Shown here piece by piece: positions 2,237-41,072 of a DNA stretch of 52,181 nucleotides (positions are counted from its first letter, which is position 1; the number at the start of each line of letters is the position of its first letter). A program made the translations under genes and the position numbers. Origin of the DNA: a virus; IMG/VR virus record IMGVR_UViG_3300045988_143416, positions 1 through 52,181 of that record. The stretch is one strand, 5' to 3'. The notes under the pieces are model-generated. The model did no database searches. It saw nothing but the letters and a program-made list of their open reading frames with translations, and had not been told where the DNA came from.

Positions 2237-2265
2237 TTGAAAAAAAGTCATTATTTAGATAAAAT
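2237..2265 (+). promoter_or_regulatory. Sigma-70-like promoter in front of the packaging operon
   Basis: TTGAAA, 17 nt, TAAAAT. Confidence 0.45.
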
Positions 2266-2389: not shown

Positions 2390-2791
2390 TTGGCAAAGAG
2401 CAAGGGCAATGTTGGCAATTTGAAGCCCGTTACAAGCAAAGAGGAAGCAAGAGAAAGAGGCAGAAAAGGCGGTATTCAGTCAGGCAAGACAAGAAAAGCC
2501 CGAAAACAAGCAAAAGAATGTTTGAATATGATACTTTCACTTGATGTTACAGGCGAAAATAACAAAAAACTTTTATCAAATCTCGGCATTGAGGATAAAG
2601 AACAACAAAACATTATGCTTTTAATGGCTCGTATGTATATGAAAGCAGTAGCGACAGGCGACGCAAGTGCAATAGCAAAGATACTTGAAATAGCGGGCGA
2701 CTTGGAAGCAAACACCGCCGAAAAGTCAGCACCCACAATCAATATCAGCGTTCAGCCTGCAACTGAAAAAGATGTTGAAGATATGGAGTAA
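2390..2791 (+). CDS. terS: Putative terminase small subunit
   Basis: TTG start behind AAGGAGGG. Basic N-terminus with GRKGGIQSGKTRK, typical of small terminases of Gram-positive phages. It is the first gene of the packaging block. Confidence 0.5.
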   Translation: MAKSKGNVGNLKPVTSKEEARERGRKGGIQSGKTRKARKQAKECLNMILSLDVTGENNKKLLSNLGIEDKEQQNIMLLMARMYMKAVATGDASAIAKILEIAGDLEANTAEKSAPTINISVQPATEKDVEDME

Positions 2792-2811
2792 ATTTATAAG
2801 GAGGTGAGAAT

Positions 2812-2973
2812 ATGGCGAAACAGAACAAATACGGAAGCAGACAGACCCCTATGCAGTCACGAATTGCAAAGGCGACAGGTCAGTCAAGAGGTATGGCGGG
2901 TGTGTTTGGTCGTACTCGTCGTGACGCTTATAACGGCTTTAGAAGAAAGTCTAACGGCGGAATGGGTGGTTAA
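2812..2973 (+). CDS. Basic, probably disordered mini-protein, 53 aa, C-terminus ...SNGGMGG
   Basis: ATG lies 5 nt after AAGGAGGTG (2798-2806). Stop TAA at 2971-2973. Preferred over the overlapping track ORF 2804-2995. Confidence 0.5.
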   Translation: MAKQNKYGSRQTPMQSRIAKATGQSRGMAGVFGRTRRDAYNGFRRKSNGGMGG

Positions 2974-2975
2974 TA

Positions 2976-3638
2976 ATGAGCAATTTATTATTTGACCCCA
3001 TTAAAACACAGGCAAGCGTTACGGATAGCGTGCTTGTCGGCTTTAGTGGCGGTAAGGATAGCATAGTAACGCTTGATTTGTGCGTTAAGTATTTTAAAAA
3101 TGTTGTGCCGTTCTTTATGTATCTTGTACCCGATTTACAATTTCAAGAAAGAATGTTAAAGCGGTATGAGGATAAATACGGCATAGAAATTATTAGACTG
3201 CCACACTTTGAGTGTTCAAACTTCTTAAAGTATGGCAGTTTTACAATGTTTGACCCGACTGTTGATATTGTAGGTATTACAGACACTTACGAATATTTAA
3301 GGCAGAGAACGGGCATACATTGGATTGCAGCGGGTGAGCGTTGTGCTGATAGTATCGTGCGTAACGCAATGATTAAGCAGAGCGGTAGCATAGACTACAA
3401 GCGAGGACGCTTTTACCCTATTGCATATTGGAACAAACAAGAAGTATTACAGTACATCAAATACAAGAAACTGTATTTAAGCCCCGAACAAAAGAAAATC
3501 GGCTTTTCTTTTCGCAGTTTGGCAGGGTGTGAGTTGGCAACAATCAAAAATATGTACCCCGCAGATTATGAAAAGATATTAAAGGTTTATCCCTTTGCAG
3601 GGGCGGCAGTTGAAAGATTTGAAAAGTACGGCAAGTAA
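2976..3638 (+). CDS. PAPS-reductase-family PP-loop ATP pyrophosphatase
   Basis: PP-loop GFSGGKDS, then IAAGERCADSIVRNA and YPIAYWNKQEVLQYI, matching the CysH/DndC-type pattern. Confidence 0.85.
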   Translation: MSNLLFDPIKTQASVTDSVLVGFSGGKDSIVTLDLCVKYFKNVVPFFMYLVPDLQFQERMLKRYEDKYGIEIIRLPHFECSNFLKYGSFTMFDPTVDIVGITDTYEYLRQRTGIHWIAAGERCADSIVRNAMIKQSGSIDYKRGRFYPIAYWNKQEVLQYIKYKKLYLSPEQKKIGFSFRSLAGCELATIKNMYPADYEKILKVYPFAGAAVERFEKYGK

Positions 3639-3651
3639 AGTAGGTGATTGA

Positions 3652-3852
3652 GTGGCAAGGACATTTTCAAGAACGCATAAAATTGTTAGAACACAACCCG
3701 CTTCTTATTATTCTTCACAATCAAAAGAGGAAAGAGCAAGAAACGCACGAAATCATATGAGTATGTTGCGTGATAAGCCTATGGTAAGAGTTCCTAACAG
3801 AATGAAAGTAAACAGTATGAAAAAGCGTTCAAGCGGTGGAGCAGGAGGCTAA
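3652..3852 (+). CDS. Basic mini-protein, 66 aa, C-terminus ...SSGGAGG
   Basis: GTG start behind AGGTGA. Rich in Arg and Lys. Tightly packed between the PP-loop and ParB-like genes. Confidence 0.45.
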   Translation: MARTFSRTHKIVRTQPASYYSSQSKEERARNARNHMSMLRDKPMVRVPNRMKVNSMKKRSSGGAGG

Positions 3853-3856
3853 ACGA

Positions 3857-4519
3857 ATGGCACAAAGCAAATATCAAAAATTCAAGATTGAAACAATCAG
3901 CAGAGCAGATATTAAGAACGCCGACTATAACCCACGCATTATGGATAAAGAGGCAAAGAAGCGATTAAAAGCAGGCTTAAAGAAACACGGGCTTGTATCA
4001 ACTTTGACTTGGAATAAGCGAACGGGCAACCTTGTAGGCGGTCACCAAAGGCTTGAACAGTTAGACGCTTTAGAGCGTAACAAAGATTATACACTTGATG
4101 TTTGCGTGATTGATGTTGACGAACAAGAAGAAGCAATATTGAATGTGCAGTTAAACAACCCGTCAATGCAGGGCGATTGGGATTTAGACGCATTAGCCGA
4201 TATGACAGAGCAATTTGACATTGACTTTGACGATATGGGCTTTACTAAACTTGATGTGGACTTTATGTATGACGGTGACGAGAAGTTTACACAGCTATTT
4301 GAAACACCTGAAGCACAAGAAGTCAAACAAGGGCTTGAAGAAGTCAAGGCGGCAAGGCAGGCGGGCAAAGAGCGTATGCAAGATAAGAATAACATTAACT
4401 TTTATTCTATCATTGTTTTTGAGGACGAAAAGCAACGCACCGATTTTTACAAGAAAATCAGCACGCCGCCGAGTGAAGAATATTTGACTGTTGATAAAAT
4501 AATGCGAATAGCAAAGTAA
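3857..4519 (+). CDS. ParB/sulfiredoxin-fold (ParB-like nuclease domain) protein
   Basis: Motif NLVGGHQRLEQL in a ParBc-like N-terminal domain. Start moved to ATG 3857, 8 nt after AGGAGG (3843-3848). Confidence 0.75.
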   Translation: MAQSKYQKFKIETISRADIKNADYNPRIMDKEAKKRLKAGLKKHGLVSTLTWNKRTGNLVGGHQRLEQLDALERNKDYTLDVCVIDVDEQEEAILNVQLNNPSMQGDWDLDALADMTEQFDIDFDDMGFTKLDVDFMYDGDEKFTQLFETPEAQEVKQGLEEVKAARQAGKERMQDKNNINFYSIIVFEDEKQRTDFYKKISTPPSEEYLTVDKIMRIAK

Positions 4520-4520
4520 A

Positions 4521-4542
4521 AGGGCGGTTATTATACCGCCCT
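4521..4542. terminator. Bidirectional intrinsic terminator
   Basis: AGGGCGGT-loop-ACCGCCCT between convergent genes. Confidence 0.7.
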
Positions 4543-4722
4543 TGATGTTGTCTTTTTTGGTCTTTTTGATGTTGTATCTTTATATGTTAACTGCAATGTG
4601 CACCCGTTTAAATCAGCGTATATATAACGGCTGTTAAAACGGCTTACATTCAATTTTAAGCCTTTGGGCAATGTACCATAGCCCTGAATATAAATATCAT
4701 TTGCAAGTGTTGTTGTTTTCAT
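4531..4722 (-). CDS. Hypothetical protein, 63 aa
   Basis: Start moved to the internal ATG (MKTTTLAND...) preceded by AAAGGGGG. Confidence 0.5.
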   Translation of the reverse strand: MKTTTLANDIYIQGYGTLPKGLKLNVSRFNSRYIYADLNGCTLQLTYKDTTSKRPKKTTSRAV

Positions 4723-4735
4723 TTTCAAGCCCCCT

Positions 4736-4954
4736 TTAAGCAAATACAGATAACGCAAGCATAAATGCTGCGGCTTCACGGTCACTTGAAATAAAGTCAC
4801 CACGGTACTTGACAAATTCGCCTACAAATTCTTTATGATTTGGCACAAATTCATCAAATGCGGTTACGGCTTCTTTATAGCCCGCTACATTATTATGATT
4901 GTAGAGAAATTCATATTCTTTGTTGAATTGGTCTAAAAATTCTTTGATATTCAT
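4736..4954 (-). CDS. Hypothetical protein
   Basis: 72-aa ORF in a co-oriented three-gene antisense cassette. Confidence 0.55.
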   Translation of the reverse strand: MNIKEFLDQFNKEYEFLYNHNNVAGYKEAVTAFDEFVPNHKEFVGEFVKYRGDFISSDREAAAFMLALSVFA

Positions 4955-4971
4955 AATATTTATGCCCCCCT

Positions 4972-5226
4972 TTATGCTGTCAAGCGGTAATCATAGTCAA
5001 CAAATACAAATGTATTACCGCCTTGCAATATCTCGCCTGTACGCTCGTCACGGTCGTAATTTTCGTATTTCATTGCTGTGCTTTCAATCTCTTTTTTGTC
5101 AATGGCTAATTCTTTAATATTTACCCAAATTGCATAGCCGTCATAAGATACACCGACACGGCGGTTATTGTAGCCGTGTTCTTTTAATTCTTTGCGAATT
5201 GCTGCAAGTCTTTCATCATCTGTCAT
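4972..5226 (-). CDS. Hypothetical protein; weak resemblance to polyvalent-protein-associated domains of conjugative elements
   Basis: First gene behind the minus-strand operator promoter. The AAIRKELKEHG...YDRDERTG pattern is recalled from LPD-type domains, with low certainty. Confidence 0.55.
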   Translation of the reverse strand: MTDDERLAAIRKELKEHGYNNRRVGVSYDGYAIWVNIKELAIDKKEIESTAMKYENYDRDERTGEILQGGNTFVFVDYDYRLTA

Positions 5227-5282
5227 AGTATTTACCTTTCTACGATTATAGCCCGTCGGCTTTATTTCTTATCTTTGTATAT

Positions 5283-5311
5283 ATTGTATCACAAAAGTGA
5301 TATAAAATCAA
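5283..5311 (-). promoter_or_regulatory. Promoter (minus strand) with palindromic operator 5287-5302
   Basis: On the minus strand: TTGATT, 17 nt, TACAAT. TATCACAAAAGTGATA overlaps the spacer and -10. Confidence 0.55.
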
Positions 5312-5369
5312 TAGTAAAATAGTGAAAAAATGCACAAATATCAATGTAAAACTTTGTGAATTATGCCTA

Positions 5370-5851: not shown

Positions 5852-7087
5852 GTGGTAAAAATAAATATTGATGTAAAGATAAACCCCGTATATTTTCCGT
5901 ATCTTGATAAACCGCAATTTGTACAGATATTTTACGGTGGCTCGTCAAGTGGTAAATCTTATTTCAACGGACAAAAGATTGTACTTGATAATATGCACGG
6001 CGTTAATTGGCTTTGTTGTCGTAATGTTGCTAAAACAATGCGTAACAGTATATTCAATGAGGTAACAAAGGCAATAATTAAAATGAATTTGAGCGAGTAT
6101 TACAGGATAAACCGCTCGGATATGGTTATTACTAACACCCTGAATAATAAGCAAATACTATTTGCGGGGCTTGATGATGTTGAAAAAGTCAAGTCAATTA
6201 CACCGATTGAGGGCGTACTCGAAAGGATATTTGTAGAAGAAGCAACAGAGATAAAGTATGCCGCCTATAAGCAATTAACAAAGCGTTTGCGTGGTTATAG
6301 CGAACACCGCAAAGGTATTATTTTAGCATTTAACCCTATCTTAAAATCACATTGGATATATCAAACATTTTTCGGCGGTTGGCAAGACGACAAGAATTGT
6401 TACGAAGATGATAATTTACTAATCTTAAAGACCACCTACAAGGATAATTTGTTTTTGACACCCGAAGATAGAGAGCAATTAGAGAATGAGAGCGACCCAT
6501 ATTTCTATAATGTGTATTCACTCGGTAATTGGGGCATACTCGGCAACATTATCTTTAAGAATTGGCACACAGAGGATTTAAGCGAACAATCAAAGACTTT
6601 CGACCATTTATATTATGGTTGCGACTTTGGTTATTCCTCCGACCCTAACGCTTTGATAAAGGTACATATTGATAAGACCCGCAAAAAGATTTATATACTT
6701 GATGAATTTTATCAAGCGGGAATGAATGATGATGAACTTGTGAGAGTATCACGCAAATTTGTTAAAGACGATTATATCACCTGCGATAGTGCAGAGCCGA
6801 AAACGATTGACTATTTAGCAAATCACGGCGTAAATGCTACACCTGCTGTAAAGGGTGCGGATAGTATCAATCGTGGCATAAGGTGGTTGCAAACATACGA
6901 AATAATTGTTGATGTGCGTTGTCAAAATTTCAAAAACGAGATAGAGCAATACCATTGGCAAGAGGATAAGTACGGTAATGCAATGGCAAAGCCTGTTGAC
7001 GCAAACAATCACCTTTTAGACGCTTTGAGATATGCACTTGAACAAGAAATGTTAGAAGCAGAGGTAGAGGCAGGAATAAGAATATAA
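5852..7087 (+). CDS. terL: Terminase large subunit (PBSX/XtmB-type)
   Basis: Walker A YGGSSSGKS, Walker B-like IFVEEA, and a C-terminal nuclease region. GTG start behind AAGGG. Confidence 0.9.
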   Translation: MVKINIDVKINPVYFPYLDKPQFVQIFYGGSSSGKSYFNGQKIVLDNMHGVNWLCCRNVAKTMRNSIFNEVTKAIIKMNLSEYYRINRSDMVITNTLNNKQILFAGLDDVEKVKSITPIEGVLERIFVEEATEIKYAAYKQLTKRLRGYSEHRKGIILAFNPILKSHWIYQTFFGGWQDDKNCYEDDNLLILKTTYKDNLFLTPEDREQLENESDPYFYNVYSLGNWGILGNIIFKNWHTEDLSEQSKTFDHLYYGCDFGYSSDPNALIKVHIDKTRKKIYILDEFYQAGMNDDELVRVSRKFVKDDYITCDSAEPKTIDYLANHGVNATPAVKGADSINRGIRWLQTYEIIVDVRCQNFKNEIEQYHWQEDKYGNAMAKPVDANNHLLDALRYALEQEMLEAEVEAGIRI

Positions 7088-7242
7088 TGTGTAATCACAA
7101 TTTTGTAACTGTTAATGATGTTAGAGTATGTCAAAAGTGCGGTATTACCGTTACTTTTGATAATAAAGTGCTATTTGATAGAAAAATAGCAAACTATAAA
7201 CCTAAAAAGAAGAAGCGAGGCAAGAAATGGCAAGGAAAATAA
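7087..7242 (+). CDS. Possible small zinc-ribbon protein, 51 aa
   Basis: ATG overlaps the terL stop. It has a CxxxxxxxxxCxxC pattern and a Lys-rich tail, overlaps the portal start, and has a weak RBS. Confidence 0.3.
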   Translation: MCNHNFVTVNDVRVCQKCGITVTFDNKVLFDRKIANYKPKKKKRGKKWQGK

Positions 7243-36317: not shown

Positions 36318-36629
36318 ATGAAACTTATTACAAAAGAAATTGAGAGAAAACTCAATAAAACACCGATTTACAGCAAAGACGGTCAAGGCGTTGACGCTGA
36401 AATCATTGTAAAATTTTTCAACCCGTGCGGTGCTGCTACTTGGCTTATTACAGAGGCAGAGAAGCAAGACAACGGCGACTATCTATTATATGGCTATATC
36501 ACATTAGGCTATGGCTATGAATGGGGCTATGTGATGTTGTCAGAGTTGCAGAAAATTAGAAACGGTTACGGCTTAGGTATTGAGCGTGACAGATACGCAC
36601 ACGGCACAGTTAAAGAGAATGTAGCATAA
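36318..36629 (+). CDS. DUF2958-like protein
   Basis: The pattern VKFFNPCGAATWLITEAE...GYGYEWGYVMLSEL...GIERD matches my recollection of DUF2958. Confidence 0.6.
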   Translation: MKLITKEIERKLNKTPIYSKDGQGVDAEIIVKFFNPCGAATWLITEAEKQDNGDYLLYGYITLGYGYEWGYVMLSELQKIRNGYGLGIERDRYAHGTVKENVA

Positions 36630-38141: not shown

Positions 38142-38243
38142 CGCAGAGCGACTACCACCCTTGCAAGGGTGGTAGGTAATGCGGTCAGGCAGACGGTCGC
38201 AAACCCGACAGCCGCAAACAATAAAGAAAGGGGGGGCGTAAGA

Positions 38244-38435
38244 ATGACAGAATACTATGCTTGCGGGCTTGTTTTCTTTGCCTTTATAGCAATAACGCTA
38301 TTACTTTATTTTGCTTATTATTCCATTAACAAGGCTATTAGAAAGCGTAAAATCAAGCAGTTAAAGAGAGAATACAGGCGCAGAAAGCAAACACAAACAT
38401 ACGCCGAATTTGTGGCAGTATCTGAAGCATTTTAA
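38244..38435 (+). CDS. Small membrane protein, 63 aa
   Basis: Start moved to ATG 38244, behind AAGGGGGGG. One TM helix followed by a basic tail. Confidence 0.5.
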   Translation: MTEYYACGLVFFAFIAITLLLYFAYYSINKAIRKRKIKQLKREYRRRKQTQTYAEFVAVSEAF

Positions 38436-38455: not shown

Positions 38456-38872
38456 ATGAAAGCAATATCTATTAAGCCGCATTTTGCACATCAAATATTG
38501 TGTGGCACAAAAACAACAGAATACAGAACTTGGCAGACAAAATACAGAGGCAACTTGCTTATATGCAGCAGTGCAGCACCGAAAGAGAAAGGCACAATAA
38601 GCGGTCACGCTTTGATTGTTTGCAGGCTGAACGACATTGAGCCGTTAAGTAAAAGAGAGTTAAGAGAAATCGGCGTTGATGAAAACCCCGACAAGCCTAT
38701 TTACGGTTGGCGGCTGACAGACTTTAAAACTATAAAGCCGTTTCCTGTAAAGGGCAAACTAAATCTTTACGAGGTTGACGACAATTTAATTGAGTACATT
38801 GACGACGAGCAAATGACAAGCAAAGAACTTGACGAGGTATTCAACAAGTATTTCAAGCCGTTATTTGATTGA
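38456..38872 (+). CDS. ASCH domain protein
   Basis: N-terminal MKAISIKPHFAHQILCGTKTTEYRTW...RGNLLI pattern is typical of ASCH domains. Confidence 0.65.
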   Translation: MKAISIKPHFAHQILCGTKTTEYRTWQTKYRGNLLICSSAAPKEKGTISGHALIVCRLNDIEPLSKRELREIGVDENPDKPIYGWRLTDFKTIKPFPVKGKLNLYEVDDNLIEYIDDEQMTSKELDEVFNKYFKPLFD

Positions 38873-39518: not shown

Positions 39519-41072
39519 TTACACCCTCCTTTTCGTTTTTGTGTATAAACTCCACTCGGGCTGTCCGTGCGGTAGCTTATGCCCAATTTGTACAGCAGTG
39601 GGGGAGGCATAGAGAAATACCTCTATTACCTCATTATCAATCACGATTTTTTTTACAAAATTATTAAAAATGGTTTGCAAAACTTCATCATCTGTTGTGT
39701 CGGATATTGACAACATTTTATTGAGATAGTCAACAATCATAGCGTGTGAAATTGTCATTTTTGTTTGTTGCTCAATAGCCATAATTTGACTATCAATTTC
39801 CTTTGCTCTATCCTCACACTTTGTCATATGTTCAGCGACATAAGCATTGTTGACTAATTTTAATGACCTCAACTCCAACAACTCGGATATTTGAGACTCT
39901 ACAGTAGACAATTCCTTTTTCAGTTGTTTAAGTTTGCTTTTTTGGCTATCGGGATTTTCGCCTAATTTTACTATAATCTCATTTGCAATTTGATAAATCG
40001 ACTTTTCGTTTAATATGTGTTTCTTAATTTCATTCAATACGGTTTCTTCTAAATAATCTTTTCTTACCCTCTTGCAGGAACACTCGGCGTATGTTTTACT
40101 TGTGGAACATACATAGTATTTATAATCGTATTTCTTGCCACGCTGTACGCTTGCACTTCTTATCCCGAAAAAGTGCTTGCCACATTTTCCGCATATTATT
40201 TTTCCTGTTAAAGAGTATAAATCTTTTCGTTTGCGAGGTTTTACATAGGTTTGGCTCTTATGCCGTTGTTGTACTCTATCCCATAAGACTTTATCAATGA
40301 TAGGTGGAATTACATCATATACAACAATCGGCTCGTGTCCTTGTGCATTGTATCTTAATATGCCGATATAAAAATCATTCCGCAACATTCGGGCAATGGA
40401 GGTAATACCGAACGGCTTACCTTGCCTTGTCGAAGCCCCTATACTTTTAGTGTAATCTTGCAAATATTTCAAGGAATAGTTATCCGCATACAATTCAAAC
40501 AGTTTGTTGACAACCTCTTTTTCATATTCGTCAGGCGTGTACTTTTTCTTTTTCTTTTTACCGTTATCAAAGACGGTTTCTAATTTATAGCCATAAGGAA
40601 CAGTACCGCCTGTAAAATAACCTTGCTTTGCCATTTCTCGCATACTTGATTTTACAAAGTCCGATATAGTTTCACTTTGGAATTGGTCTATATCTGCAAG
40701 AACATTTATCATTAACCGTCCTGCACTTGTTTCGTCGTCCATAAGTTGAGTAATTGAGACTAACCGTACATTGTGCTTTTTGAACAATTTGCGGTACTTA
40801 TGACTTTCGTAAGCGTTACGGAATATGCGGCTGAATTTATAAACGACAATTACATCTATCAACTCATTTTTGACATCATTTATCAATTCGTGGAACGCTT
40901 CACGCCCTGCCACCTTTGTACCTGTTATTGCTTGGTCTATATATGTTTTAGTCAATGGCAGTCCTTGTTTGTTCAGGTATTCTTGACATTCAGACATTTG
41001 ATATTCGATTGAATATCCGTCGTCTTGTTTCGTGTCGGAATATCTTGCATATAACCCTGTTCGTTCGTTCAT
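39519..41072 (-). CDS. int: Large serine recombinase (integrase)
   Basis: N-terminal LYARYSDTKQ resolvase domain, recombinase domain, Cys-rich zinc ribbon (CGKCG...C..C) and a coiled coil. 517 aa. Confidence 0.9.
   Translation of the reverse strand: MNERTGLYARYSDTKQDDGYSIEYQMSECQEYLNKQGLPLTKTYIDQAITGTKVAGREAFHELINDVKNELIDVIVVYKFSRIFRNAYESHKYRKLFKKHNVRLVSITQLMDDETSAGRLMINVLADIDQFQSETISDFVKSSMREMAKQGYFTGGTVPYGYKLETVFDNGKKKKKKYTPDEYEKEVVNKLFELYADNYSLKYLQDYTKSIGASTRQGKPFGITSIARMLRNDFYIGILRYNAQGHEPIVVYDVIPPIIDKVLWDRVQQRHKSQTYVKPRKRKDLYSLTGKIICGKCGKHFFGIRSASVQRGKKYDYKYYVCSTSKTYAECSCKRVRKDYLEETVLNEIKKHILNEKSIYQIANEIIVKLGENPDSQKSKLKQLKKELSTVESQISELLELRSLKLVNNAYVAEHMTKCEDRAKEIDSQIMAIEQQTKMTISHAMIVDYLNKMLSISDTTDDEVLQTIFNNFVKKIVIDNEVIEVFLYASPTAVQIGHKLPHGQPEWSLYTKTKRRV

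Follow-up and report, generated by a model that had tools for sequence, protein, structure and literature searches.

Several described systems pair a PP-loop enzyme of the 3'-phosphoadenosine-5'-phosphosulfate (PAPS) reductase family with a ParB-like protein. In Escherichia coli, IbrA carries a PAPS-reductase domain and a C-terminal DUF3440, its partner IbrB is ParB-like, and to our knowledge no microprotein partner has been reported for IbrAB. The phage pairs annotated as 'PAPS reductase + ParB-like nuclease' show the same family pairing on prophage-type DNA. DndBCDE and SspABCD likewise contain a PAPS-reductase-family PP-loop protein (DndC or SspD), together with the ParB-family DndB and the small basic DNA-binding protein DndE. 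The ParB-Tls loci (Iyer, Zhang, Aravind; cited in PMC4738411) place a ParB-superfamily gene and a nucleic-acid-modifying enzyme gene beside terS/terL. Here we analysed a related cassette in the virus record IMGVR_UViG_3300045988_143416 (the window is its whole stretch of 52,181 nt, and coordinates throughout are positions in it). The cassette encodes a PP-loop enzyme, a ParB-like protein and two small basic microproteins ending in Gly-Gly, mini1 and mini2. The initial annotation of this DNA had likened it to the PAPS-reductase/ParB pairs, and the likening was apt. Sequence comparison across loci shows a mobile phage module near the terminase genes, consisting of a ParB/Srx-type protein, a PP-loop ATP pyrophosphatase, an ASCH (PUA-like) protein and one to four microproteins. 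We consider it very probable that the microprotein is real and is a dedicated functional partner of the enzyme.

The four open reading frames (ORFs) of the core cassette exist as the initial annotation described them, and both mini-ORFs have good ribosome-binding sites. mini1 (2812..2973, plus strand) encodes 53 aa (MAKQ...RRKSNGGMGG-stop) from an ATG start (AAGGAGGTGA-N5-ATG). Only 2 nt separate its stop from the PP-loop gene that follows (2976..3638, plus strand), which encodes 220 aa with the SGGKDS motif. mini2 (3652..3852, plus strand) encodes 66 aa (...KKRSSGGAGG-stop) from a GTG start (AGGTGA-N4-GTG). The ParB-like gene (ParB/Srx superfamily; 3857..4519, plus strand; AGGAGG-N8-ATG) encodes 220 aa, with NPR and GGHQR boxes in an N-terminal NTP-binding-type domain.

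The comparison sample consisted of 27 viral contigs, annotated phages and 80 genome loci, and tails were counted over 77 related loci. Judged by its substitution pattern, mini1 is a genuine gene under purifying selection over the whole ORF. Between mini1 and its orthologue in locus L006 there were 14 synonymous and 0 non-synonymous differences (proportion of synonymous differences, pS, 0.385; of non-synonymous differences, pN, 0), and the pN/pS of 11 other pairs ranged from 0 to 0.44. Gene calls on 14 independent metagenomic contigs include the exact 53-aa protein as well. Of the 809 ORFs of 20 aa or more in the six frames of the window, mini1 and mini2 alone end in GG. The initial annotation had named a lack of conservation of the mini-ORFs as grounds for giving up its reading; what we found for mini1 was purifying selection and orthologues across relatives.

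The end of the microproteins was then compared residue by residue. The tail consensus was R-R-K-S-x-G-G-x-G-G-stop. In 43 distinct tails, the glycines at -5, -2 and -1 were each present 43 times and that at -4 was present 41 times, preceded by R at -10 (39), R at -9 (35), K at -8 (30) and S at -7 (35). The glycine codons varied synonymously (GGC 77, GGT 54, GGA 25, GGG 14), and a canonical Shine-Dalgarno core stood ahead of the enzyme gene in 9 of the 43 distinct tails. The tail was also kept in copies followed by a 15-19 nt spacer (L002, L058). Many microproteins share an N-terminal motif as well, MA..(V/I)(K/Q)(Q/R)(R)I.R.TG, and in the alignments the extreme C-terminus is the sole strictly conserved feature. 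Comparison of these tails shows selection acting on the exact C-terminal end of the encoded proteins.

Both mini-proteins had been described as basic, probably disordered and ending in GG-x-GG, and the charge counts, charge-hydropathy plot and tail sequences all agreed with this description. The count of K+R against D+E was 12/1 for mini1 and 16/3 for mini2, and both fell on the disordered side of the plot. The AlphaFold2 model of mini1, built from a 22-sequence alignment, reached a predicted local distance difference test (pLDDT) of 57 and a predicted template modelling score (pTM) of 0.21, with two low-confidence helices and a coil tail.

To relate the tail to the enzyme, the start of the enzyme gene was examined in the 74 loci for which upstream sequence was available. 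In 54 of them it was abutted by an ORF with the ending G-[GSH]-x-G-G, the gap being mostly -4 to +7 nt. Among the other plus-strand ORFs of these loci (25-160 aa), 19 of 2902 had the same ending (0.65%), and many of these 19 were extra cassette copies. At least one small basic tail ORF was present in the cassette in 62 of the 77 related loci (one in 53, two in 7, three in one, four in one), with a median length of 53.5 aa and a range of 32-146 aa. The co-occurrence proposed in the initial annotation was thus borne out for the mini1-type ORF beside the enzyme, and did not hold for the mini2 slot, which varied between near-identical phages.

The enzyme clade, taken as at least 50% identity to the window protein, was found in prophages of Clostridia, Enterococcus, Lactobacillus, Eggerthellaceae, Coriobacteriaceae, Desulfovibrio and Bilophila, and also of Dechloromonas/Rhodocyclales, Gallionellales, Moraxella, Kingella, Haemophilus and Bryobacteraceae. 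The cassette hosts therefore cover Clostridia, Lactobacillales, Coriobacteriia, Desulfovibrionia, Beta- and Gammaproteobacteria and Acidobacteriota. On this distribution, the microprotein family beside this PP-loop clade occurs in phages from five or more bacterial phyla. The enzyme's nearest genomic relatives (78-85% identity) were prophages in Acutalibacteraceae, Oscillospiraceae and other Clostridia from gut metagenome-assembled genomes. In Lactobacillus phages, long forms of 91-146 aa follow the enzyme and the ParB-like gene and end (K/R)xS(T/F)G(S/H)xGG. Among deposited phage genomes, the only cultured phages with this enzyme clade were LR1 of L. reuteri and JNU_P7 of L. gasseri (57-59% identity), which have the long form. 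Prophages of culturable hosts also carry the cassette, in its short form in Moraxella sp. ZJ142 (L064) and Enterococcus florum Gos25-1 (L045) and in its long form in Lactobacillus kitasatonis DSM 16761 (L058) and L. colini DSM 101872 (L051).

The microprotein stays with the enzyme where other parts of the locus change. It does so in L008, where the ParB is a 73-aa remnant, and in L009 and L033, where homing HNH genes are inserted. It also does so through exchange of the terminase and head genes, as in the many loci where terL identity is 24-37% or undetectable and the enzyme is still more than 50% identical. This linkage across ParB loss, HNH insertion and terminase exchange argues for a partnership with the enzyme and against capsid targeting. 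The claim that the four genes form a functional unit was supported in that the minis are conserved genes of the translated type, tied to the PP-loop enzyme.

Some further details of these loci were recorded. The insertion in L009 (5905-6456, between enzyme and ParB) matches NUMOD4 (E 8e-16), HNH_3 and I-HmuI NUMOD-like domains; that in L033 (3295-3996, between microprotein and enzyme) is a 233-aa gene, HNH-like by eye only. Pasteurella phage Pm86 (L003) has the PP-loop gene and no ParB match. At 5113-5361, directly before its putative terS, are two unannotated small basic ORFs that end ...GARSSGS and ...SGSRSSGS and could represent degenerate or divergent relatives of the tail family. A fusion of the tail to the enzyme or ParB (a Rosetta stone) was sought and rejected: the ParB of L015 and L041 ends ...LAENGG, which is coincidental and not a fused tail.

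mini2 behaves differently from mini1. Only a minority of loci have a gene in the second slot, in the gap between enzyme and ParB. L004 and L005 match the window at 99% identity in both the enzyme and ParB and show a clean and precise deletion of mini2. Contigs with identical mini1 have the slot empty or filled with variants of 59, 66 or 72 aa, whose bodies diverge to 22-50% identity and whose tail ...KKRSSGG(A/S)GG is fixed. Direct BLAST of mini1 against mini2 found similarity in the tail alone. The second-slot protein of L011 is 65% identical to the window's mini1, and therefore both slots draw on one family. By these comparisons, mini2 is an accessory, exchangeable, fast-turnover paralogue of the same tail family. 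The bracketing pair of mini-proteins noted in the initial annotation is present in the window and is not the canonical design, since one microprotein directly upstream of the enzyme is the usual arrangement. The mini2 deletion also has a consequence for the next gene: comparison of L004 (2087-2170) and L005 with window positions 3610-3900 showed that loss of mini2 turns ParB's own ATG into ATA. In both loci ParB starts at a GTG inside the Shine-Dalgarno sequence that precedes mini2 in the window (VIEIAQSKYQ...), a start-codon capture following gene loss.

The assignment of the enzyme to the PAPS-reductase-family PP-loop ATPases, made before from SGGKDS, was confirmed with the PAPS_reduct profile, above its curated threshold (Pfam PF01507, 46.3 bits, cutoff 22.5, E 6e-12). 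The protein also matched PHROG phrog_424 (E 2e-21). SGGKDS occupies residues 24-29. Across 13 diverse homologues, down to 25% identity, the invariant columns were S24, G26, K27, F40, V43, E65, H77, G120, D125, P148, P195, D197 and P206. No cysteine was invariant in this 13-homologue alignment, and the window's AGCEL reads AGKEL or AGSEL in relatives. The enzyme therefore has neither the catalytic Cys found in CysH nor the Fe-S ligands found in adenosine 5'-phosphosulfate (APS) reductase and DndC.

Several identities were considered for the enzyme and rejected. A true PAPS/APS reductase (CysH) would have a catalytic C-terminal cysteine of the ECGLH type, and in APS reductases a 4Fe-4S cysteine cluster as well; here no Cys is conserved, and the NCBIfam CysH models scored far under their cutoffs. 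For DndC/SspD the conserved Cys is likewise missing, and the PADLOC DndC match (E 0.035 over 18 residues) is insignificant. The cassette thus differs from DndBCDE/SspABCD in having an enzyme without the DndC cysteines or Fe-S site, and no counterpart of DndA/IscS, the DndD ATPase or DndE was found among the neighbouring genes examined. The PADLOC QueC match (E 0.026) was not significant, and Pfam places the enzyme in PAPS_reduct rather than in the QueC family (PF06508). The enzyme is not IbrA either: it has a ParB-like partner, but it is a 220-aa single domain with no second Pfam match. Cys36 was rejected as a catalytic residue because it is invariant in close homologues only, with Ala or Leu in its place in the distant homologues. 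Its position in the helix that follows the PP-loop makes a structural role probable.

Searches of solved structures with single protein sequences gave nothing useful, and family profiles were required. The best PDB match of the enzyme family profile was CysD (1zun, E 1.2e-4). The AlphaFold2 model of the enzyme had a pTM of 0.71, and its top Foldseek matches were NcsA, TilS, LarE, TtuA and APS reductase, with template modelling (TM) scores of about 0.45-0.50. The intact SGGKDS and the best match to CysD, an ATP-using adenylyltransferase, point to ATP alpha-beta cleavage, that is adenylyl transfer, as the likely chemistry.

The ParB-like protein matched PHROG phrog_9353 (E 2.6e-66) and the ParB-like phrog_620 (E 2.9e-25). 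Against the PDB, its family profile matched Spo0J (6sdk, E 2.3e-4, the best), ParB (4umk, E 1.1e-3) and Noc, all in their N-terminal domains. In the profile alignment NPR was matched and GGHQR aligned to the GERR box, and the invariant residues include N25, P26, R27 and G62, H63, Q64. The ParB/Srx fold read earlier from GGHQR was therefore upheld by phrog_620 and by the family profile against the PDB, and not by the Pfam ParBc profile, for which E 0.1 was not reached. A canonical partition ParB has a central HTH DNA-binding domain, a C-terminal dimerisation domain and a ParA partner; here, no profile match was found past the N-terminal domain with Pfam or with the family profile against the PDB, and no parA was seen in the cassettes examined. 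A start of the gene at GTG 3836 is less likely: AGGAGG lies 8 nt 5' of ATG 3857, and in relatives ParB begins MAQSKYQ at the matching position. The start is most likely ATG 3857, and the ParB-like gene therefore does not overlap mini2.

An ASCH-domain gene, missed by the initial annotation, is on present comparisons a fourth linked component. In 46 of 76 related loci it lies immediately beside the cassette, either upstream in the same orientation (14) or convergent after ParB (32), and the loci without an adjacent ASCH gene belong mostly to the window's own close clade. The cassette-adjacent homologues of L002, L023, L017 and L050 pass the Pfam ASCH threshold. In the window the copy is distal (38456..38872, plus strand; 138 aa; Pfam PF04266, 33.2 bits against a cutoff of 21.2, E 8.9e-8), and it is 38% identical (E 2e-22) to the ASCH protein encoded beside the cassette in phage JNU_P7. 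The motif in the phage ASCH proteins is the common GxKxxExR (GTKTTEYR in the window, GSKTIEYR in L002). The YqfB amidohydrolases reportedly have a catalytic Thr in a GxKTxTxR motif. A YqfB-type N4-acylcytosine amidohydrolase was rejected for the phage protein, which has Glu at that position. In the ParB-Tls contexts, ASCH domains recur as they do around the cassette, and methyltransferases are named (PMC4738411). The combination of a PP-loop enzyme with an obligatory GG-tailed microprotein is not described in the texts covered, to which the 2013 source paper does not belong.

The tail also invites comparison with small proteins that act through an ATP-activated C-terminal Gly-Gly(-x), such as ThiS, MoaD, TtuB, SAMPs and Pup. 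The microprotein shares their C-terminal Gly-Gly on a flexible tail, with G-2 and G-1 in all of the 43 distinct tails, and Pup is intrinsically disordered as the microproteins are predicted to be. Pup is acidic, whereas the microprotein is strongly basic. Unlike ThiS, MoaD and TtuB, the microprotein has no beta-grasp fold, as judged from the low-confidence helix and coil and the disorder plot. Its partner is a PP-loop enzyme and not an E1-like or PafA-type one, and no E1-like (ThiF/MoeB) enzyme was found among the cassette genes examined in the 77 loci.

Two further systems are precedents for the chemistry. In QueC-family conjugation (Cap9 of type IV CBASS; QatC with QatB), a PP-loop ATPase in phage-host conflict likewise acts on a partner with a flexible terminal glycine motif, which is essential and thought to enter the active site (PMC13279940, PMC13376578, bioRxiv 10.1101/2025.04.06.647259). 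That motif is N-terminal, provides an amine nucleophile and belongs to a folded protein, whereas in the cassette it is C-terminal, would provide a carboxylate and belongs to a disordered microprotein. Cap9 and QatC are QueC-family enzymes of host defence, and the cassette enzyme is of the PAPS-reductase family and phage-encoded. In Mom of phage Mu, an activated glycyl group is transferred through its carboxyl to adenine N6 in double-stranded DNA, after replication and for restriction evasion (PMC13219725), and the same chemistry is proposed here for the cassette. Mom is a GNAT enzyme that uses charged Gly-tRNA, without a PP-loop enzyme, ParB or peptide.

Taken together with these parallels, the gene set most likely modifies phage nucleic acid chemically before packaging. 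The behaviour of the microproteins resembles that of substrates, in that there are one to four copies per locus with divergent bodies, a constant tail and no confident fold. The microprotein gene runs right up to the enzyme gene; this suggests translational coupling, and in our model the microprotein would be the enzyme's dedicated partner. Its flexible glycine tail would enter the adenylation pocket of the PP-loop enzyme. The terminal carboxylate and ATP would give an acyl-adenylate, as PP-loop enzymes form with other carboxylates, and the activated end would be passed to an amine acceptor on nucleic acid. The ParB-like protein might provide access to double-stranded phage DNA before or during packaging, and the ASCH protein might read or remove the adduct. 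mini2 would be an additional, exchangeable member of the microprotein family. The pay-off would be phage DNA shielded from restriction-type defences of the host.

This inference leans on the QueC and Mom precedents and on three others. A phage thymine dioxygenase acting on double-stranded DNA requires a ParB protein, which activates the enzyme (PMC13229309). The ParB-terminase loci are predicted to modify DNA at packaging (PMC4738411). Escape from Dnd has been traced to a phage region in which a PAPS-domain-Dam fusion is the notable gene (bioRxiv 10.1101/2021.05.05.442762). The DNA-modification module acting at packaging time that had been suggested for this DNA therefore matches the published ParB-Tls prediction and the experimental phage precedents, and its function is inferred from them.

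Different parts of the model deserve different confidence. The layered model as a whole, with the tail adenylated by the PP-loop enzyme and passed to nucleic acid, ParB giving access and ASCH as reader or eraser, is a serious but tentative proposal. Adenylation of the C-terminal glycine is plausible by analogy, and taken alone we regard this step as possible rather than probable. In the most specific version, a ribosomally made, disordered peptide is activated by ATP at its C-terminal Gly-Gly by the enzyme and joined covalently to a phage DNA base, as a peptidyl- or glycyl-nucleobase adduct or a scaffold for hypermodification, with ParB as clamp and ASCH as reader or eraser. This version is quite unlikely; if true, it would mirror QueC-type deazaguanylation and give Mom a peptide-based cousin.

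A number of points weigh against the model. In 15 of the 77 loci there is no tail ORF at all. The longer protein of LR1 ends ...GSSGKSSG, and the proteins of Bacteroides phage BS-TP2 and Riemerella phage RAP44 (25-29% enzyme identity) end ...GANGSNG and ...RRLKANGAI. The last two are the most distant relatives and keep a small basic ORF in the same slot. With these other ends, a free Gly-Gly carboxylate is therefore not universal. We know of no PAPS-reductase-family member that adenylates a protein C-terminus. The target could be RNA instead of DNA, the anti-defence pay-off is borrowed by analogy from other PAPS-domain phage genes, and a hydrolase role is not implied by the sequence of the phage ASCH.

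The main rival is that the microprotein is a non-covalent, basic and arginine-rich adaptor that binds nucleic acid, docks by its glycine tail, tethers or activates the enzyme (perhaps also ParB) on DNA or RNA and is itself unmodified. The enzyme would then adenylate a nucleobase or backbone position directly, like the tRNA-modifying PP-loop enzymes. The extreme basicity and disorder of the microproteins fit such an adaptor, as does the conserved N-terminal motif Q-R-R-I-x-R-x-T-G beside a highly variable middle. Abutting genes would suit equimolar subunits, the structural neighbours of the enzyme are mostly PP-loop enzymes that modify nucleic acids or cofactors (TilS, TtuA, NcsA, MnmA), and distant relatives keep the basic mini-ORF without the GG end. 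However, a docking motif alone would hardly account for a stop placed exactly after G-G in all 43 distinct tails, and one to four interchangeable copies with unrelated bodies resemble substrates more than a structural subunit. We regard the adaptor as possible rather than probable.

In another reading the target is RNA, for example host or phage tRNA, with the PP-loop and ASCH proteins as writer and eraser or writer and reader and the microprotein as cofactor or substrate. Many PP-loop enzymes modify tRNA, and ASCH proteins are documented as N4-acylcytosine and tRNA ac4C amidohydrolases (PMC6972931; bioRxiv 10.64898/2026.02.27.708502). A ParB-type partner and the constant place beside terS/terL nevertheless indicate DNA (PMC4738411; PMC13229309). 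With the phage ASCH also lacking the Thr said to be catalytic in YqfB, an RNA target appears unlikely.

The thiocarboxylated carriers suggested in the initial annotation fared worse. In the style of TtuB-TtuA or ThiS, the GG tail would become a thiocarboxylate and donate sulfur to DNA (phosphorothioate-like) or to a base. C-terminal Gly-Gly is the hallmark of ThiS, MoaD and TtuB, TtuA and NcsA are among the top structural neighbours, the PDB match 5gha is TtuA bound to TtuB, and DndC and SspD belong to the PAPS-reductase family (PMC12707154). But an enzyme without an invariant cysteine offers neither an Fe-S site nor a Cys for persulfide formation or catalysis, and no E1-like adenylase, cysteine desulfurase or rhodanese was found among the cassette genes examined. 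The microprotein, disordered or helical (pLDDT 57), is not beta-grasp, and the match to PADLOC DndC was only that of E 0.035 over 18 residues. A sulfur carrier is very unlikely.

The microproteins had also been read as packaged DNA-binding proteins inside the capsid, and the C-terminal Gly-rich motif would then be a capsid-targeting peptide. They are small, basic and expressed near the packaging genes, and encapsulin cargo-loading peptides are short, C-terminal and Gly-rich. This reading is nonetheless highly improbable: the cassette moves between phages with unrelated or very divergent terminases, the microprotein travelling with the PP-loop enzyme and not with the head genes (terL 24-37% identical or undetectably related), and the microprotein stop abuts the enzyme gene start.

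Our first suspicion, that GG tails are by-products of G-rich Shine-Dalgarno sites and the mini-ORFs coupling leaders without protein function, drew on the last codons of both minis, which overlap the next ribosome-binding site (GGGTGG for the PP-loop gene and AGGAGG for the ParB gene), and on the missing GG end in relatives from Bacteroidota, hosts that rarely use Shine-Dalgarno sites, but it is effectively refuted and its chance close to nil, given purifying selection over the whole ORF, a 10-residue motif longer than any Shine-Dalgarno site, GGC as the commonest Gly codon with a canonical core in only 9 of 43 tails, and tails retained ahead of 15-19 nt spacers (L002, L058).

Database searches did not recover the microproteins under any name. 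The minis, and likewise the long Lactobacillus-type GG proteins, matched no model of Pfam, PHROG, NCBIfam or PADLOC. A microprotein profile gave 26 matches in 5.8 billion proteins, all short and unannotated, and 17 matches in 1.84 billion representatives, of which P0152 and P0158 were spurious repeat proteins; no fusion of the microprotein to an enzyme was present among these large-database profile matches. tblastn of mini1 against 50,697 deposited phage genomes gave no match, and megablast of the region against deposited phages gave no match and no close relative. GG-tailed microproteins were not mentioned in the literature found, a search outside which the 2013 ParB-terminase paper of Iyer et al. 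lay. The PAPS-reductase/ParB pairs, the ParB-terminase loci and the routine annotation of the enzyme are already known. The microprotein family, its near-obligate coupling to this enzyme clade, the second-slot turnover and the set of four genes with ASCH are not described in the literature searched.

PAPS-reductase-like genes are among the commonest 'auxiliary metabolic' annotations of phages and are usually read as sulfur metabolism, and their role in phages was still called unclear in papers of 2024-2025 (PMC11437467, PMC12323421). In the cross-phylum clade studied here, the lack of a conserved cysteine means that the enzyme cannot be a PAPS reductase. The vague annotation gives way to a minimal system with defined parts, three or four small proteins and a 10-residue peptide motif, which is open to reconstitution in vitro. 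Activation of the tail by the PP-loop enzyme, if it occurs, would be a new class of enzyme-peptide chemistry in phage-host conflict and possibly a new DNA modification. The cassette would also offer another functional microprotein overlooked by gene callers and family databases.

The region 2390-4519 comprises five closely packed plus-strand genes, the first of which is a terS-like gene (2390..2791, plus strand; 133 aa, TTG start behind AAGGAGG) that is context rather than core cassette. A sigma-70-like promoter candidate (2237..2265, plus strand; TTGAAA-17-TAAAAT), a pattern match from a consensus scan alone, lies 5' of the terS-like gene and the cassette. A bidirectional hairpin terminator (4520..4543; AAGGGCGGT-loop-ACCGCCCTT, 9 pairs, found on both strands) closes the cassette. 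With the promoter-like site and the terminator, the block looks like its own transcription unit. Three small minus-strand genes (4531-5226; 94, 72 and 84 aa) and a few small genes separate it from terL (5852..7087; Terminase_3, E 4e-46). The cassette had been placed inside the packaging operon; it is near the terminase genes, but looks like a unit of its own, with three reverse-strand genes before terL. Upstream of the block are a dUTPase, a RusA-like gene and an ArpU-like late regulator.

The name terS for 2390-2791 rests on position in relatives, where the homologue lies before the cassette or between ParB and terL (L010, L046, L047). By profile the label found no backing, since the sole match was phrog_2412 (E 3e-15), a PHROG of unknown function. 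Against the terS-position gene of phage BS-TP2 the protein aligned weakly and locally (32% over 37 aa, pairwise E 0.001). That gene carries a DUF5681 annotation in the phage record, and a Pfam scan of it gave no match.

The reverse-strand genes at 4531-5226 occupy the slot of the convergent ASCH gene in most relatives, and contigs with identical mini1 have two or three reverse-strand genes of differing size there. In L115, another contig with identical mini1, a DarA_C-domain gene (PF18789) begins (6155-6162 onward) where other contigs have terL. Between terL and portal, a 51-aa ORF (7087-7242, plus strand) has a CxxC..CxxC-like N-terminus (MCNHNFVTVNDVRVCQKCG...) and a lysine-rich tail. It has no Pfam match and is kept in the same slot in L004-L008 and L028, a further unannotated microprotein of the packaging region.

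The genome is of the 52-kb temperate siphophage type, with a large serine recombinase-type integrase (39519-41072, minus strand; phrog_95, E 4.6e-112). This gene and a DUF2958 protein (36318-36629, plus strand; E 1e-19) lie near the ASCH gene, at the lysogeny end. About 250 nt 5' of the ASCH gene there is a type-P5 twister ribozyme (38142-38208, plus strand), a full-length match to the Rfam model RF02684 (45.3 bits, gathering score 37.6, E 2.7e-6), which overlaps the 5' end of the ORF at 38169-38435.

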